From contig CAYYOG010000003.1 of assembly GCA_964473325.1 (NCBI GenBank), positions 10,478 through 74,477 of the forward strand: DNA of 64,000 bases, given 5' to 3'. This document shows, piece by piece, positions 12,401 through 64,000 of the stretch (its first letter is position 1; the number at the start of each line of letters is the position of its first letter). The position numbers and the translations under genes are program-made. Under the pieces are notes generated by a model. The model was not told the origin of the DNA. It searched no databases and worked only from the letters and a program-made list of their open reading frames with translations. The DNA comes from an uncultured Thermotogae bacterium. Lineage in GTDB: Bacteria > Bipolaricaulota > Bipolaricaulia > RBG-16-55-9 > DRXL01.

Positions 12401-14321
12401 CTTGGGTGGGGATGCTCAAGGGGCGGCCACTCGCTGGGGAGAGTATGTTTTTGGGGGCGAGCATGATCTCGCGCGTCTCTTGGATGGCTTCTTTGCTGAG
12501 GGGCAGATGGACTGCCATCATGTCGCCGTCAAAATCGGCGTTATACGGGCGACAGACGAACGGATGGATCTGGATTGCTTCGCCGTCGACCAAGACGGGC
12601 TCGAACCCTTGGATGCCCAACCGATGGAGCGTCGGGGCGCGGTTGAGCAAGACTGGGTGCTCTTTGACTAATTGCTCTAAGATATCCCAGACTTCGGGCA
12701 TCTCTCCTGAGAGGGCTTTGTTCTTGACGTCATCGTAGTTAGAGATGGCGCTGACACCGAGCCGAGCGAGCACGAAGGGCTTAAAGAGCTCCAGGGCGAT
12801 CTTCTTGGGCAAGCCGCACTGGTGCAGTTTGAGCGTGGGGTTGACAACGATGACCGCACGGCCGGAGTAATCGACACGCTTACCCAAGAGATTTCTTCGT
12901 AGTCGTCCATGCTTCCCCTGGATGCGCTCGCTGAGGGACTTTAGCGGGCGGTTATCGCGCCCAAGGATGGGGTTATCTTTCTTTTCGTTGTGGATGAGGG
13001 CGTCGACAGCTTCTTGGAGCATTCTGCGCTCATTGCGCAAGATAATCTCCGGCGCGCCCATCTCCATGAGCTTTTTGAGCCTGTTGTTTCTGTTAATAAT
13101 ACGTCTATACAGATCGTTGAGATCAGTGGTGGCGAACTTGCCGCCCTCAAGCTGCACAATAGGGCGCAGCTCCGGGGGCAAGATGGGGATGACGTCTAAG
13201 ACCATATGGTGGGGCTGGTTGCCGCTGCGCCGCACTTGTTGCACGATCTCCAAGCGCTTGAGGAGTCTCTTGCGGCGGCCCTCCGTGGGCTCTTGCGCGA
13301 TCTGCTGATGGAGCTCGGCTTCGAGGGCGGCTAAGTCGAGATTGGCCAAGACGCCCTTGATCCCTGCGGCGCCGGTCTCGGCCTCAAACTGCCCCGGATA
13401 GAGCTTCTCGTATGCTTTCTTCTCGAGCTCCCACAACCGGTCCCCGACTTTTAAGGGGACGTTGGGGTTCTTCACGCTTGTGACCAGATAGATTAAACTA
13501 TCAACGGCTTCAACGACCTTTTTGCCCTTCAGATCAGGGTAGACGCTCTTGAGAAAGTTAAACATCGTCTCGGTGAGATACTCTTCTTTGAGCAAGCGTG
13601 CGAGAGCCTGGCCGACTTCGACTTTGCTGCCCGATTGCACGAGCAGCTCCGCACTGAGAGGCACAGGAAACGCTTTCGTCGCATTAGAGAGCTTGATGAG
13701 CTTGATCTCTTCGCCGTTGTCGAGTTTGATCTTTTCAAAAGAGACCTTGCCGTCGCCCTCCGCGCTGATCTCAAAGTCGTTCTCTAAAGCGTAGAGGCGC
13801 TCGGCTGTGAATTTCTTCTTCTCACCTAAAATCCGAAGCTGCGTACCATAGATAATATCGCCCTTGGAGAAATCTGAAGCGCTTGACTGGGTGACGATGT
13901 ACATCTCTTCTTCGAGAGGGGTGGTCTCGTAGTACGCGATCTTCTTGAGGGTGGCGCGCTTGATCCCTAACAGTGTGCTCAGGGGCGAGGAGATGCCCTT
14001 CAGATACCAAAAATGGACGACGGGGCTGGCCAGCTCCACGTGGGCCATGTTGGAACGGCGCACCTCGGAGCTGGTGACCAGCACCCCGCATTTCTCGCAG
14101 GTGATCCCTTCGTACTTGCGCCCACGATATTTCTGGCAAGCGCACTCGTAGTCGTTCTCCGGCCCAAAGATTTCTTCGGCGAAGAGACCTCCGCGCTCGG
14201 GCTTGTGCGTTCTATAATTGATCGTCTCCGATTCGGTGACCTCGCCGCGGGACCAACTTCTGATCTCCTCGGGCGAAGCCAACCCAATGCGCAATTTGGC
14301 AATATCGTCGCCGCTATACAC
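9357..14321 (-). CDS. rpoC: DNA-directed RNA polymerase subunit beta' (1654 aa; ~200-aa lineage-specific insertion after the clamp/zinc-finger region)
   Basis: Zn finger [35 protein letters not shown] catalytic motif, [21 protein letters not shown] start at 14319-14321 with AAGGGGG SD. The 3' end overlaps rdgB by 77 nt, convergently. Confidence 0.95.
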
Positions 14322-14372
14322 GGTGACCCCCCTTAGGTGTTGCAGTGCAATGGTGCTGCTGTGCTGCAGTAT

Positions 14373-14621
14373 TCACGAATTGTTTGAGTTCGTAGACGTC
14401 TGCTGAGTTGTGCCGTTCGTTGACGGAGAGTGATTGCGTTTCCGCCCGTAATTGGTCGTGTAGAAGCCTTTCCCTTTGTATTGGATGCCGACGCGCGAGG
14501 GGAGGCGGCGTGCTTGTCTAGCTCCGCACTCCGCGCAATCCCGCTGATCTGAGCTATCGAACGAGTCGAGCACACTGAAACTATGACCACACGATTCACA
14601 AAGATAGCGATATAACGGCAT
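14373..14621 (-). CDS. FmdB-family zinc-ribbon regulatory protein
   Basis: MPLYRYLCESCGHSF…CAECGA CxxC…CxxC pattern. Start placed at ATG 14621 (GGAGGA SD) rather than the track start at 14648. Low-complexity C-terminal tail. Confidence 0.6.
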   Translation of the reverse strand: MPLYRYLCESCGHSFSVLDSFDSSDQRDCAECGARQARRLPSRVGIQYKGKGFYTTNYGRKRNHSPSTNGTTQQTSTNSNNS

Positions 14622-18404: not shown

Positions 18405-18481
18405 TGGTGCGCCCGGTGCGATTTGAACGCACGACCTGCGGTTTAGGAAACCGCCGCTCTGTCCAACTGAGCTACGGGCGC
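18405..18481 (-). tRNA. tRNA-Arg (anticodon CCT), CCA encoded
   Basis: Manual cloverleaf: acceptor GCGCCCG/CGGGCGC, D-arm GCTC-AGTTGGACA-GAGC, anticodon stem GCGGT/ACCGC with loop TTCCTAA, T-arm GTGCG-TTCAAAT-CGCAC. Confidence 0.85.
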
Positions 18482-19303: not shown

Positions 19304-19376
19304 TGCTGGGGCGGGAGGATTCGAACCTCCATTCACGGCTCCAAAGGCCGGCGTGCTACCGTTGCACCACACCCCA
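19304..19376 (-). tRNA. tRNA-Gln (anticodon TTG), no encoded CCA
   Basis: U1:A72 acceptor (TGGGGTG/CGCCCCA) typical of tRNA-Gln; D-arm GTGC-AACGGTA-GCAC; anticodon loop CTTTGGA; T-arm GGAGG-TTCGAAT-CCTCC. One C:T mismatch at the top of the anticodon stem lowers confidence. Confidence 0.6.
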
Positions 19377-32478: not shown

Positions 32479-32940
32479 CTACGGCTCGCCCAGGATCGTG
32501 AAATCGGTCACAGTGTACTCGATTTCGTCATCTACAGCACCCTTGAGGTGGTCAATGCTGATGCGCCTGGGATACCCCAACACTGGGTCATACGTGACGT
32601 CCACATGGGCGGCCTTGCCGCTGAGAGCTGCCCCAATGAGATCAAAAAGCTCTTCGATTGTATCCACATGGTTGAAATGCTCCAAGTCTACGGGAGCTCC
32701 GCTCTCCGCAGCAGTGATAGAAACCGTCAGGCCGTTCCGGATCTCGATGACCACAGGTTGTCGTATCTCCGGCACACAGAAGCAGAGTGTCTGCAATCTG
32801 TAGCGGTAGTCCCTGATCTGATGGGCTTGCCATCGCTGTCGGTGTTGAGCGAGCTTGTCGAGGTCATGTTGGCTAAGAAGGGTGCACGAGACCAAAACCA
32901 GCGAGAGCCAAAGAAGAGAGGGTATCTTTTTCATAGACAC
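32479..32940 (-). CDS. Hypothetical lipoprotein
   Basis: Signal peptide with lipobox LVSC. No recognisable catalytic motif. Confidence 0.45.
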   Translation of the reverse strand: MSMKKIPSLLWLSLVLVSCTLLSQHDLDKLAQHRQRWQAHQIRDYRYRLQTLCFCVPEIRQPVVIEIRNGLTVSITAAESGAPVDLEHFNHVDTIEELFDLIGAALSGKAAHVDVTYDPVLGYPRRISIDHLKGAVDDEIEYTVTDFTILGEP

Positions 32941-37085: not shown

Positions 37086-39209
37086 ATGAGCCATCGAAGG
37101 ATCTTCGCAGCTCTTCTTATAGGGGTTATTGTCGGCTTCCTTGGTCAACAGTCAGTAACCCACGCGGCTTCTGTACGCGACGTCGTTATCAGCGAGGTCG
37201 CGTGGATGGGCACGCAAGCGAGTGCCAATGACGAGTGGATCGAGCTGTATAATAACACTGATTATGATATCGATCTGACGGGATGGAAGCTCCAAGCTGA
37301 AGACGGCACGCCTACTATCGTGCTCTCCGGGATTATCCCCGCCCACGGGTTCTTTCTGTTGGAGAGAACTGATGATAATACTGTCAGTGACATCGCTGCT
37401 GATCTTGTCTACGGCAATGATGGATCTAGTTGGGCGTTGAGCAATAGCGGCGAGAAGCTCTTGCTGAAAGACTCAAACAATATTGTCATAGACACAGCCA
37501 ATGGCAATGGCGGCCCCTGGCCCGCCGGAACTGCCTCACCAAGAGCAACAATGGAACGGATTGATCCCACAGCTCCCGACTCTGACGCAAACTGGGATAC
37601 CAACGACGGTGTCCATCGCAATGGGCTTGACGCGAATAATAATCCCATCAACGGCACACCGAAAGCCCCGCGCCAGCGCGCGTCTTACAATGCCCGTGAC
37701 GTCGTGATCAGCGAGATCGCGTGGATGGGGACAGAAGCTAGTGCCAACGATGAATGGATTGAGCTCTATAACAATACTGATCGCGCGATTAGTCTTGTGT
37801 GGTGGCGCTTAGAAGCAGCTGATGGGGTGCCCTCAATAGTGCTCTCTGGTACCATCCCTGCGCGCGGGTTTTTCTTGCTGGAGCGCACCGACGACAGCAC
37901 AGTCAGCGACATTCCTGCCGATCAGATCTACACCGGAGCTCTCTCTAATTCTGGGGAGAGCCTGATCTTGAAAGACCCGTCGGGGAACGTCATAGACACT
38001 GCCAACGGCGACGGTGGCCCTTGGCCCGCCGGAAACGATTTCCCACGAGCAACGATGGAGCGTTTGGACTTGCTCGCTCCAGACTCAGATACGAATTGGG
38101 CGACGAATAACGGGGTCTATCGCAATGGCTTGGATGCCCAAAGTAATCCCATCAACGGCACGCCCAAGGCTCATAAGCCTCCCTATGTCACGATCATCAG
38201 TCCTAGGGCAACCGCGCCCGTGTATCTCTACCCAGGAGAGAGCTTCTCTGTCAGCTTCACTAGCGACGAAGCAGGCACTGCGGAGATCAACGTCAACGGG
38301 ACAAGCTGCGGCGGTGGAGCTATCAGCATGGGGACGAACTCTCAGCTATGCACGCTCCCTAGCCCATTTGCCCATGGCATCTATGATCTCTCTGTGACAG
38401 TCACTGACGCCACGACGACTGCTGGTACTGCAACGGCAACAGATGCGGTGCACGTGATCGTAGCAACTCTTGGTGACGTCAACGGTGACGGAAAGGTCAA
38501 CGTGATTGACGCGCGCCTAGCACAGCAGCACGCCGACGGGTTCATCACGCTCGCGGGGATACAGCTCTTAGCTGCTGACGTCGACCAAGACAGTGACGTA
38601 GACTCCGCTGACGCGACGGCGATTGCCAGGAAGGGGATTGGGCTGCCCACGGGAATCCCTTGGTTTGTGCTCGCCGTGCCCGCGTTGGCGTTCTTGCTAG
38701 TATCTCGCTGCAGAGGGTTCGCGGCACTGCTCCTCATGATGGGATTGCTAGGAACTCTGACGAGTTGCTCGGAGTTTGCGGGCCCGCCTCCGCCGTCCGG
38801 CCCCTCGCTATTTATCACTTCGACTTCGATGCCCAACGGTGCGACGCGCACGCTCGATCTGGCCGTGCAAAACGTGACGGCTCAGGGCGGCGTGGCCTCG
38901 CTCCAGGGGCGGATCACCTATCCTCCTGGGAGAGTGACGGTGCAGTCGCTCACGGGCTTGAATGGCTTCGTTGTCAAGGCATTCGTGATACATGACCGCG
39001 AGCTGCGCTTCGCTCTCGTTAAGCCTAGCCCTGGAGGGATCAGCTCCGGAATCGTCGCGCGAGTAACTCTATCAGTTTGGGGAGCGCCAGGGGACATCGT
39101 CACGCTGAGATGGGCTGCCAGCGCCCAGACACCAATAGTCATCGGCGGAGAGACGAACACGGAGGTCACAGGGCTTAGTTTTGGCGACGGCCAAGTGAAG
39201 GTACGCTAG
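37086..39209 (+). CDS. Surface protein: signal peptide, two tandem lamin-tail domains (LTD), an Ig-like region, a dockerin type-I-like double Ca-binding repeat, an internal sorting-signal/lipobox-like hydrophobic segment, and a C-terminal cohesin-like domain
   Basis: LTD repeats at aa 28-195 and 205-370 are ~75% identical (nt 37170-37650 vs 37690-38170). Dockerin loops DVNGDGKVNVIDARL and DVDQDSDVDSADATAI. Segment GLPTGIPWFVLAVPALAFLLVSRCRG-FAALLLMMGLLGTLTSCSE at nt ~38660-38760. Confidence 0.6.
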   Translation: MSHRRIFAALLIGVIVGFLGQQSVTHAASVRDVVISEVAWMGTQASANDEWIELYNNTDYDIDLTGWKLQAEDGTPTIVLSGIIPAHGFFLLERTDDNTVSDIAADLVYGNDGSSWALSNSGEKLLLKDSNNIVIDTANGNGGPWPAGTASPRATMERIDPTAPDSDANWDTNDGVHRNGLDANNNPINGTPKAPRQRASYNARDVVISEIAWMGTEASANDEWIELYNNTDRAISLVWWRLEAADGVPSIVLSGTIPARGFFLLERTDDSTVSDIPADQIYTGALSNSGESLILKDPSGNVIDTANGDGGPWPAGNDFPRATMERLDLLAPDSDTNWATNNGVYRNGLDAQSNPINGTPKAHKPPYVTIISPRATAPVYLYPGESFSVSFTSDEAGTAEINVNGTSCGGGAISMGTNSQLCTLPSPFAHGIYDLSVTVTDATTTAGTATATDAVHVIVATLGDVNGDGKVNVIDARLAQQHADGFITLAGIQLLAADVDQDSDVDSADATAIARKGIGLPTGIPWFVLAVPALAFLLVSRCRGFAALLLMMGLLGTLTSCSEFAGPPPPSGPSLFITSTSMPNGATRTLDLAVQNVTAQGGVASLQGRITYPPGRVTVQSLTGLNGFVVKAFVIHDRELRFALVKPSPGGISSGIVARVTLSVWGAPGDIVTLRWAASAQTPIVIGGETNTEVTGLSFGDGQVKVR

Positions 39210-40491: not shown

Positions 40492-40567
<76 letters not shown>

Positions 40568-42537: not shown

Positions 42538-42970
42538 GCGAAGAGGAGCAGAGGGCCGCCCCAGGCTCCGCCTGGACTGTACGCCTTCGCCAGCCAGAGG
42601 CTGGCGAAGATGAAGGTCAAGCGAAGCTTGTCCAGACGAAGCCTGGGGAGGAAAGTCCGGACTCCACGGGGCAGGCCGCTCGCCGCAAGGCGAGAAGGAG
42701 CGATCCTTGGAAAGTGCCACAGAGAAGAGACCGCCAGCGGCCGGCGGCACGCGCCGCCGGTGCGGGCAAGGGTGAAACGGTGGAGTAAGAGCCCACCGCC
42801 CCGCTCGCGAGAGTCGGGGGCACGGCAAACCCCGGCCGGAGCAAGACCAAGTAAGGGCGCGTCTGAGAGTGGCCCGCTCGAATCGTGCCCGGGTAGGTCG
42901 CAGAGAGAGATGGCCCTCACCGACTCTTGGACAGAGTCGGCACAGAATCCGGCTTATGCTCCTCTTCTTT
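42538..42970 (+). ncRNA. rnpB: RNase P RNA, bacterial type A, with an extended (~95-nt) P3 helix
   Basis: Conserved regions read directly: GGAAAGTCCGGACTCC, AGGGTGAAACGGTGGAGTAAGAGCCCACC, ACAGAATCCGGCTTAT; P1 gaagaggagca/tgctcctcttc; P2 gagggcc/ggccctc. TATAAT at 42526-42531 lies 6 nt upstream of the 5' end. Confidence 0.9.
42561..42646. repeat. ~86-nt palindromic element forming the rnpB P3 extension; a second copy lies in hypF at 53880-53952
   Basis: Shares caggctccgcctgg…cttcgccagccagaggctggcgaag…gtccagacgaagYctgg with 53880-53952. Terminal inverted repeats and a central hairpin cttcgccagc-cagag-gctggcgaag. Confidence 0.7.
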
Positions 42971-43081
42971 TTTGTTCTTTGACGAACCGGGCGCTATCGG
43001 ATAGAATATTCTTTGGCGATGGAGTCCGCCGTCAACCGTCCGGGCACGTCGGACTGATGACTCCTACCTAAGACTCTTCAT

Positions 43082-63152: not shown

Positions 63153-63922
63153 CCGTTGCTGGCAAGGGCGGCGTAGGCAAGACAACCGTTGCAGGGCTGA
63201 TCGTGCGCGCGCTCGTCGAGCGCCGCGAAGGGCCGGTGCTCGCTATTGATGCCGACCCGAATACGAATTTTCACCAAGTCTTGGGCCTAAAACTCGAGCA
63301 GACCATCGGCGAGCTGCGCGAAGAGACGCTCAAGAAGATTAAAGACTTGCCGCCGGGGATTGCCAAAGATCAGTATCTCGAATATGGGTTGCAGCAATGT
63401 CTTGTGGAGGGCAACGGTCTTGATCTTTTAGCGATGGGCCGTGGTGAAGGCCCCTTCTGCTATTGCGCTGTCAATCACGTCTTGCGACGCTATATAGATC
63501 TGCTTAGCAAAAACTATAAGTATGTCGTTTTGGACAACGAAGCGGGCTTGGAGCACCTATCGCGGCGCACGACCCAAGACGTTGACGTGCTCTTGGTCAT
63601 CAGCGATGCCAATCCCATTGCACTGCAAGCTGCAGCTCGAATTAACAGATTGGCTGATGAGCTGCAATTGCGCATCCGCACGAGATTTTTAGCTCTGAAC
63701 AATGTGAGCGATAGTAGGCGAGCTCGGCTAGGGGATAAGTCTTTTCAGGAGAGGCTCGCGCAGACGGGGCTTGCGCTCATCGGGGAGATCCCAACAGACG
63801 AAGCGCTTTGGGATCTCAGTCTCGAAGGTAAGCCGCTCACTGAGCTGACTCCAGCTTCCCCAGCCAAGCGCGCCGTACAGGAGGTCTTAGAGAAGATTTT
63901 GTGCCACGGAGGAGGATCGTAA
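63137..63922 (+). CDS. acsF: Second CooC/AcsF-type nickel-insertion ATPase
   Basis: VAGKGGVGKTT Walker A; GEGPFCYCA CxC motif. Confidence 0.8.
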   Translation: MAFTIAVAGKGGVGKTTVAGLIVRALVERREGPVLAIDADPNTNFHQVLGLKLEQTIGELREETLKKIKDLPPGIAKDQYLEYGLQQCLVEGNGLDLLAMGRGEGPFCYCAVNHVLRRYIDLLSKNYKYVVLDNEAGLEHLSRRTTQDVDVLLVISDANPIALQAAARINRLADELQLRIRTRFLALNNVSDSRRARLGDKSFQERLAQTGLALIGEIPTDEALWDLSLEGKPLTELTPASPAKRAVQEVLEKILCHGGGS

Positions 63923-63925
63923 AGA

Positions 63926-64000
63926 TGCCCGTCGCTATTCCCGATGTCAAGAAGACCTGGCCGAATGCGATCAATGTTGTGACGCTCGGCGCAACGAAGG
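63926..64000 (+). CDS. acsD: Corrinoid iron-sulfur protein small subunit (AcsD/CdhD), N-terminal fragment (continues beyond the window)
   Basis: MPVAIPDVKKTWPNAINVVTLGATK resembles the AcsD N-terminus; operon position after acsF. Confidence 0.5.

Follow-up and report, generated by a model that had tools for sequence, protein, structure and literature searches.

A Bipolaricaulota protein with a conserved internal lipoprotein-type signal between its dockerin and cohesin domains

Results

The gene described here lies in a 64,000-nucleotide stretch of DNA from an uncultured bacterium (GenBank assembly GCA_964473325.1, contig CAYYOG010000003.1, positions 10,478 to 74,477 of the forward strand), which is labeled Thermotogae at NCBI and placed within the Bipolaricaulota by GTDB. 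We refer to the whole of this stretch as the window and number its positions from its first letter. At 37086-39209 on the plus strand, an uninterrupted reading frame encodes a protein of 707 aa, the modules of which are, from the N- to the C-terminus, a signal peptide, two lamin tail domains (LTD), an Ig-like spacer, a type I dockerin, a first hydrophobic helix (helix 1), the short basic segment SRCRG, a second hydrophobic helix (helix 2) that has the lipobox LTSC at its end, a Pro-rich linker, and a cohesin. The central part of this arrangement (nt 38634-38804) translates as ...ARKGIGLPTGIP-WFVLAVPALAFLLV-SRCRG-FAALLLMMGLLGTLTSC-SEFAGPPPPSGP..., and translation of the DNA confirms what the first-pass annotation of the window had described at this position, namely an open reading frame (ORF) that runs without a stop codon through the hydrophobic segments and the LTSC motif. 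As read from sequence, the feature is real, conserved, and unusual: a predicted internal lipoprotein signal, made topologically workable by a stop-transfer helix upstream of it, is set between a dockerin and a cohesin. A protein identical to the 707-aa product is present in NCBI assembly GCA_900098825.1, orthologs are named there solely as 'lamin tail domain-containing protein [Candidatus Bipolaricaulota]', and no paralog was found within the window.

The N-terminal portion of the protein is that of an exported passenger. It begins with a putative Sec-type signal peptide, MSHRRIFAALLIGVIVGFLGQQSVTHAA (aa 1-28, 37086-37169; all features of the protein lie on the plus strand), which was recognized by eye from the RR of its n-region, its h-region with a hydropathy peak at aa 11-17, and the small residues THA-A, the cut site being approximate. 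Two LTD-containing repeats follow (aa ~30-195 and ~203-362, 37173-38171), which match Pfam PF00932 in two stretches (E 3.7e-28) and are 73% identical when one half is compared with the other by blastp. This points to a fairly recent tandem duplication within the gene. LTD homologs from the Chloroflexi/Anaerolineae lack the dockerin and the entire set of modules that the window protein carries behind its LTD passenger, hereafter the cassette. The dockerin (aa 462-515, 38469-38630) has what defines the type I family, i.e. a score above the gathering cut-off of Pfam PF00404 (Dockerin_1; 40.2 bits against 22.9) and two Ca-binding loop-helix repeats, with the two Ca-loop-like repeats, DVNGDGKVNVID and DVDQDSDVDSAD, being assigned by sequence reading. 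It ends in a lineage-specific tail, GIGLPTGIP (38634-38660), that is kept in close homologs and absent from distant relatives.

Behind this tail, two hydrophobic segments with Kyte-Doolittle peaks at aa ~533 (2.37) and ~551 (2.07; averaged over a 15-aa window) enclose a basic loop and would form a membrane hairpin. Helix 1 (WFVLAVPALAFLLV, aa 526-539, 38661-38702), which accounts for the higher of the two peaks and is found in all cassette homologs, would act as an out-to-in stop-transfer segment. By the established positive-inside rule, the SRCRG loop (aa 540-544, 38703-38717) would then be cytoplasmic and double as the n-region of an internal signal peptide. Helix 2 supplies the h-region of this putative signal, FAALLLMMGLLGT, together with the lipobox (38718-38768), and the codon of the lipobox Cys561 occupies 38766-38768. 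The PROSITE PS51257 lipobox core has a single match in the protein, at 551-561, and the composition rule of that signature holds as well, given LTSC, a 13-residue h-region ahead of the lipobox, and RCR before the h-region. PS51257-type signals place the Cys within ~35 residues of the N-terminus, whereas the window protein has it at residue 561 of 707. By itself, the lipobox core is no rarity: four further internal matches were counted among the window ORFs that are 150 aa or longer. The full pattern of hydrophobic segment, K/R loop, hydrophobic segment, and lipobox is restricted to this protein and its homologs, and it is because of its conservation across 40 distinct sequences, not because of the bare pattern, that we regard the hairpin and its lipobox as beyond chance. 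We also observed that the N-terminal signal (37086-37169, ..HRRIFAALLIGV..) and the internal one (38703-38768, ..RCRGFAALLLMM..) have the string FAALL in common, in each case behind the basic residues, which may reflect either coincidence or a common origin.

Following the Cys, a Pro-rich linker, SEFAGPPPPSGP (aa 562-573, 38769-38804; EFAGLPPPSGP is conserved in homologs), leads into the C-terminal domain of 134 aa (aa 574-707, 38805-39206). The window protein scores 16.4 bits in this part against Pfam Cohesin (PF00963), which is below the cut-off of 24.1; the gathering score is passed by homologs P0024 (29.7 bits) and P0033 (27.9 bits), and the domain is recognized at E<=1 in 10 of 17 family members (best E 1.6e-8). 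A search of PDB chains with the family sequence profile returned nothing significant, with chance nanobody matches at E>=0.046. The last 146 aa (linker plus cohesin) were modeled with AlphaFold2 from an alignment of 25 sequences that included distant relatives, yielding a predicted local distance difference test score (pLDDT) of 96.5 and a predicted TM-score (pTM) of 0.90. When this model was compared with the PDB by Foldseek, all of the top 50 matches were cohesins (TM-scores of 0.64-0.78, normalized by query length), the best being 5nrm_A (E 2.9e-9, TM-score 0.76-0.79), and they spanned type I, II, and III cohesins, OlpA and OlpC of C. thermocellum (3ul4, 4dh2), and the Archaeoglobus cohesin 2xdh. 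Judging from the model, the C-terminal domain is a true cohesin by fold, a nine-stranded beta-sandwich of the jelly-roll kind, and the cohesin-like character suspected in the first-pass annotation is thereby borne out. Within the subfamily P0002-P0008, an insertion with two Cys residues, CGTVGDPC, is situated between cohesin strands (alignment A1, columns ~430-440), where the window protein reads VIHDRE; this insertion may be a disulfide-closed loop.

The same architecture is conserved among relatives. A single stop-free ORF with the cassette is found at 8/8 genome loci, which belong to Candidatus (Ca.) Bipolaricaulota, Ca. Fraserbacteria, and one metagenome-assembled genome labeled Thermotogae. 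Dozens of independent assemblies likewise encode it as one ORF, with identities of 55-99%. With the full-length protein as query, hairpin, lipobox, and 145-152 aa of cohesin were present in 26/26 clusters of LTD- and dockerin-containing proteins from Bipolaricaulota/Fraserbacteria, one copy being cut to 35 aa. The cassette is also carried behind other passengers, such as right-handed beta-helix or pmp-type repeats, LamG-like domains, and Flg_new_2, and it recurs in P0031, P0041, P0043, and P0044, the cohesins of which are ~28-36% identical to that of the window. The family as a whole is small, comprising 34 representatives (E<=1e-3) out of 1.84 billion clusters. It should be considered that homolog searches returned proteins near the length of the query (108-198 aa for the 146-aa profile, with long cassette proteins missing), and failure to see long or short forms in any single search thus does not show that they are absent. 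Two candidates for naturally separated forms were rejected. P0010, which resembled a close stand-alone lipoprotein, lies in a frame that continues to the edge of its contig and includes the hairpin as well, making it a gene-calling artifact, while P0154 and P0051, which resembled a split pair, are a frameshifted copy on one contig. On that 6396-bp NCBI contig, the frame of an LTD and dockerin ortholog shifts just ahead of the hairpin, and gene calling assigns its cohesin, which has an internal deletion, to a distinct ORF of 108 aa; we read the locus as a pseudogene or an assembly error.

Across the cassette homologs, the lipobox is strictly kept. Among the 40 distinct sequences, position -3 is Leu in 39 and Phe in one, -2 is Thr in 36, -1 is Gly, Ser, or Ala (20, 16, and 4, respectively), and +1 is Cys in all 40, with the h-region being free to vary. 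This set was chosen by a pattern that demands the lipobox; the unbiased check is the 26/26 match among the LTD and dockerin clusters. In the same 40 sequences, the loop ahead of helix 2 has 2-6 K/R (median 4) and helix 2 comprises 15-17 residues up to the Cys, and by these measures the two are normal n- and h-regions. When 17 diverged hairpins were aligned, the Cys and one Gly of the h-region were the invariant columns, with no others, and the -3 Leu was nearly invariant. In distant members, the post-Cys residues are unrelated (VGTSPAG, AVWTPPY, MDPGLPS, APEIKTD), yet LTAC, LVGC, and FTAC are retained, and no fewer than 13 clusters (50% identity) have kept the lipobox whole, some of their members having fully diverged at positions +2 to +10. 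Both Cys codons, TGC and TGT, occur among the homologs, and selection therefore acts on the amino acid. Relatives P0029 and P0032 carry a cohesin behind a plain N-terminal transmembrane anchor and the Cys is absent from both. The cohesin fold is therefore independent of the Cys, which is lost when it is not part of a lipobox. Furthermore, helix 2 aligns with the lipoprotein signal peptides that stand-alone relatives have at their N-termini, which, alongside the PS51257 core match, supports the earlier suggestion of a lipoprotein signal with a lipobox at this position. Taken together, the lipobox looks functional.

More distant relatives encode the two halves as separate genes. At loci L020, L021, and L024, a gene for a protein with a signal peptide, Beta_helix, Dockerin, and Flg_new_2 ends at a stop codon and is followed, after 17 nt, by a gene for a cohesin with a lipoprotein signal. 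This cohesin is P0024 at the first two loci (signal ...KFKLKNQFVALLLLSGIIPYVLTSC, followed by AAS) and its 99%-similar cluster mate P0059 at the third. At L022, a like dockerin protein is separated by 16 nt from the transmembrane-anchored, Cys-less cohesin P0029, and the same dockerin-then-cohesin layout exists at L023 and L019, the latter with a textbook lipoprotein signal, MKRNGIFAVGIGLGILVLVGC. Across the unfused relatives, the gap between the dockerin gene and the gene of the anchored cohesin is 14-17 nt. One further variant, P0027, is a fusion without any membrane helices. Stand-alone cohesins with canonical N-terminal lipoprotein signals, e.g. MRARLLAGLLMILIMGGLSAC followed by DIFGPPRPPSG, include P0033, P0046, P0049, P0050, and P0053; P0033, P0049, P0050, and P0053 were looked up and are separate genes, and the post-Cys linker FGPPRPPSG of such lipoproteins resembles the FAGPPPPSG of the window protein. 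Having no adjacent dockerin gene, P0053, P0049, and P0050 are uninformative for the pair model: P0053 and P0050 stand beside cohesin-PKD genes, the neighbor of P0053 having a type IX secretion system (T9SS) tail, and P0049 is upstream of a VWA-domain gene.

The fused and adjacent-gene forms constitute a Rosetta-stone pattern, and we therefore regard the dockerin protein and the anchored cohesin as functional partners. From the unfused distant relatives it follows that the fusion seen in the window gene is an old one; it retained the lipoprotein signal and has a predicted stop-transfer helix upstream of that signal. We hold this account of the architecture and fusion history of the cassette with high confidence. 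The first-pass annotation had considered a fusion of two genes by stop loss; an old fusion is what the adjacent genes of distant relatives indicate, whereas a recent stop loss is contradicted by close orthologs, all of which are single ORFs. It had also set single-ORF orthologs, a simple transmembrane anchor, and a C-terminal domain without a cohesin fold against its own proposals, and of these the orthologs are indeed single ORFs, whereas the cohesin fold and the lipobox are both confirmed.

With respect to the machinery for lipoprotein maturation, the annotation of Ca. Bipolaricaulis anaerobius includes lspA (supplement of PMC6092417). On the contig that encodes P0031 (locus L025; 12494-13330, plus strand, and 14037-14546, minus strand), a prolipoprotein diacylglyceryl transferase gene (Pfam LGT) is located 2.5 kb downstream, with an LptC gene nearby. 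The host of that contig therefore has Lgt and is probably a diderm. Searches for Lgt and LspA in the window and the loci by tblastn, using approximate E. coli queries, gave noise only; a weak match at 63808-63996 (minus strand) was rejected, as it lies opposite a 261-aa plus-strand ORF and contains a stop codon in its translation. A 153-aa ORF elsewhere in the window (32479-32940, minus strand) starts with a standard, lipobox-bearing lipoprotein signal at its N-terminus, MSMKKIPSLLWLSLVLVSC, which suggests that the organism makes conventional lipoproteins.

Several observations concern other cohesins or other parts of the window. At L011 (90-1070, 1161-1676, 1683-3518), and also at L012-L014 and L016, the cohesin lipoproteins P0053/P0050 are encoded just upstream of cohesin-PKD genes. 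L011 in addition has a Gly-rich 326-aa protein without a Pfam match upstream and a type IX secretion C-terminal tail on its cohesin-PKD neighbor. This arrangement looks like a different cohesin-based surface system of a T9SS-bearing lineage. In the window itself, a bacterial class A RNase P RNA (42605-42972, plus strand, 193 bits) is followed after 34 nt by a fluoride riboswitch (43006-43073, plus strand, 56 bits), and there are three tRNA genes, all on the minus strand (18408-18481, 19306-19376, and 40495-40567).

Discussion

Based upon these conserved features, a maturation pathway can be proposed for the window protein. The LTD passenger and the dockerin would be exported by the N-terminal Sec signal until transfer is stopped by helix 1, which, on the basis of hydropathy and the positive-inside rule, would keep the K/R loop in the cytoplasm. 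Helix 2 would then re-insert in an N-in/C-out orientation and export the cohesin, leaving both modules on the outer face of the cytoplasmic membrane. Upon insertion, Cys561 would presumably receive diacylglycerol from Lgt and LspA would cut between Ser560 and Cys561, as suggested by the conservation of the lipobox and its homology to N-terminal lipoprotein signals. The products would be a hairpin-anchored passenger-dockerin chain and a lipid-anchored cohesin in a 1:1 ratio, and the fusion and gene-neighbor pattern suggests that the two chains would dock by cohesin-dockerin contact, either in cis or between copies or paralogs. Thus, one gene probably gives rise to two membrane-anchored partners that dock to each other. 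Of the options raised in the first-pass annotation, cleavage into a cognate dockerin/cohesin pair would accordingly be the preferred mechanistic account. Among the individual steps, we would place lipidation plus cleavage at Cys561 slightly above even odds (roughly 0.55), while cognate binding between the dockerin and the cohesin could go either way.

A number of points weigh against this pathway. No case of a natural internal signal peptidase II (SPase II) site was found described in the literature searched, nor were relevant publications found on 'lipo-invert', on an internal lipobox or internal lipoprotein signal, or on cohesin, dockerin, and lipobox in combination. On the supporting side, the modification and processing of engineered, internalized prolipoprotein signals in E. 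coli and B. subtilis were, by its title, the topic of a 1985 study by Hayashi and colleagues (PMID 2985611). The passenger is already held by helix 1 and the benefit of a cleavage is not obvious. Post-Cys residues are conserved among close homologs as well, and part of the conservation of the Cys could be a linker effect. In addition, helix 1 is short (14-16 residues), the loop of the window protein has two positive charges only, and kinship within the family means that independent lineages are far fewer than sequences, at least 13 clusters at 50% identity carrying the hairpin. Lastly, our first AlphaFold2 model, which comprised dockerin, hairpin, and cohesin (253 aa, 13 sequences), reached a pLDDT of 54 and was uninformative on docking. 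Some of these same points speak for an uncleaved two-helix hairpin that simply holds dockerin and cohesin side by side, with the lipobox being a relic of the fusion or its Cys being otherwise used, for lipidation without cleavage or in a disulfide. Two hydrophobic segments and a K/R loop suffice for such a hairpin; the anchoring of the passenger by helix 1 is its strongest argument, and both the missing precedent for internal SPase II substrates and the conserved post-Cys residues are in its favor. However, the strict retention of the lipobox across the clusters mentioned above, even where +2 to +10 have fully diverged, is the weakness of this reading, and the relatives with a plain transmembrane anchor, P0029 and P0032, did lose the Cys. 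Furthermore, the -1 residue is always small, as LspA requires (LspA entry, supplement of PMC6092417). An uncleaved hairpin is in our estimation rather unlikely, albeit the main rival.

The remaining explanations are considerably less probable than either cleavage or an uncleaved hairpin. An internal translation start within or after helix 1, as entertained in the first-pass annotation, would yield a separate cohesin lipoprotein from the same mRNA, and it could draw upon an ATG just ahead of the basic residues in L003 and L004 or, in the window, upon a TTG (L21 of the displayed segment). However, start codons do not recur at a fixed position, a Shine-Dalgarno-like sequence at a suitable distance is lacking, the final stretch of helix 1 contains no start codon in L007 and L009, and the apparent stand-alone P0010 is a contig-end artifact. 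Such a start is consequently improbable. The same annotation had likened GLPTGIP, helix 1, and the basic tail to a C-terminal cell-surface sorting signal, in which case a sortase- or exosortase-type enzyme would cut there and attach the passenger to the wall or to lipid. There is indeed a superficial motif-helix-basic resemblance in the window protein, and PGF is present at the same place in close homologs. Even so, the motif is LPTG without the X of LPXTG, it is missing in distant relatives, and the segment lies ~165 aa from the C-terminus. Moreover, in most homologs a variable Pro/Gly-rich linker of 10-35 aa intervenes between GLPTGIPGF and helix 1, such that GLPTGIP does not qualify as a membrane-adjacent sorting motif; the window protein has its sortase-like look because its subfamily lost this linker. 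Hidden Markov models of sorting signals (sortase, PGF-CTERM, PEP-CTERM) gave isolated single-sequence matches only (E 0.29-4.3), and the 29-aa window segment had no match to them at E<=10. We consider a sorting signal highly improbable. As for a recent stop loss, frameshift, or assembly artifact that fused two genes in this genome only, the architecture is admittedly odd and a frameshifted copy (P0154 plus P0051) does exist on one homologous contig, but the recurrence of the same single ORF in dozens of independent assemblies at 55-99% identity refutes this explanation, to which we assign virtually no weight.

Several known systems share individual features with the window protein. In R. bromii, the cohesin of Amy4 recognizes the dockerin of its own polypeptide, as shown experimentally, and this self-recognition is believed to lead to multimerization (PMC4611034; PMC12663171). 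The docking proposed here, between modules of one polypeptide, thus has a precedent. Amy4 is similar in being one secreted protein with both modules, binding being a prediction in the case of the window protein, and different in having no membrane hairpin or lipobox between them, in belonging to a Gram positive amylosome, and in placing its cohesin before a C-terminal dockerin. Single-cohesin anchoring proteins such as OlpA and OlpC of C. thermocellum, ScaE, and Sca2 provide a functional parallel, since a cell-bound cohesin retains secreted proteins that bear dockerins, and the gene pairs of L020 and L022 follow the same logic. The cellulosome anchor in proteins of the OlpA/OlpC type is an SLH domain. 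ScaE and Sca2 are anchored by a sortase signal (PMC4611034). The window protein differs from all four in that its putative anchor is a lipoprotein signal, its cohesin is joined to the C-terminal side of the very protein that bears its ligand, and it has no link to glycoside hydrolases. Amy4 and these single-cohesin proteins are functionally the closest analogs, and a membrane hairpin or lipobox between the modules is found in none of them. Non-cellulosomal cohesin and dockerin proteins, for example the Archaeoglobus fulgidus cohesin 2xdh (Foldseek rank 24, TM-score 0.73-0.77), are alike in occurring outside of cellulose degradation, and we know of no membrane hairpin or internal lipobox described for such archaeal or bacterial proteins.

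With regard to the hairpin itself, ordinary lipoprotein precursors processed by Lgt and LspA resemble the window protein in n-region, h-region, and lipobox, the stand-alone homologs being the N-terminal version of the same signal, and differ in that the signal of the window protein lies 545 residues in, behind a predicted stop-transfer helix. Of the library models, NCBIfam NF058595, 'invert_tail' (lipo-invert putative C-terminal anchoring domain), alone gives repeated hits to the hairpin, in 10/17 members and with a best E of 0.0012. The window protein and one close homolog score 10.9-14.7 bits, and the scores of all members are far below the cut-off of 37. The alignment covers profile positions 24-107 of 113, from helix 1 through the loop and helix 2 to beyond the Cys. 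Going by the name of the model alone, the likeness would lie in a helix that inverts topology ahead of a lipoprotein-type signal close to the C-terminus; the difference is that the model has 113 positions with a short tail, versus a linker and cohesin of 146 aa in the window protein. The window family is not a member of NF058595, although its curators have noticed a similar design elsewhere.

The Bipolaricaulota (Acetothermia) are described as diderms of an atypical kind, which have a toga-like outer membrane and lack genes for lipopolysaccharide (PMC6092417; bioRxiv 10.1101/2025.11.21.689855). In such a toga-like diderm envelope, both modules would therefore lie in the periplasm or toga space. 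One could go further and imagine that the cohesin lipoprotein is sent on to the outer membrane while the dockerin hairpin stays in the cytoplasmic membrane, in which case a single gene would supply an inter-membrane staple or a means of handing periplasmic proteins over to the toga. We regard this as a long shot.

If the lipobox is used, the window protein would be a natural polyprotein cut by the lipoprotein pathway, releasing a dockerin protein and its lipid-anchored cohesin receptor in a 1:1 ratio within the same membrane patch. It would then provide, as far as the literature searched allows, the first natural internal SPase II site, and the substrate range of Lgt and LspA would be wider than is apparent from signal predictors and annotation pipelines, which inspect N-termini only. 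The split, fused-without-helices, and fused-with-hairpin variants offer a natural series in which to follow gene fusion versus membrane topology, and the cassette might furthermore serve as a compact self-anchoring display device for engineering. Cohesin-dockerin pairs would, in that event, constitute a general membrane-anchoring device far from cellulosomes. For the Bipolaricaulota and Fraserbacteria, which are deep-branching, barely cultured, and enclosed by a toga-like outer membrane, this would be a first handle on how the proteins of the envelope are organized.

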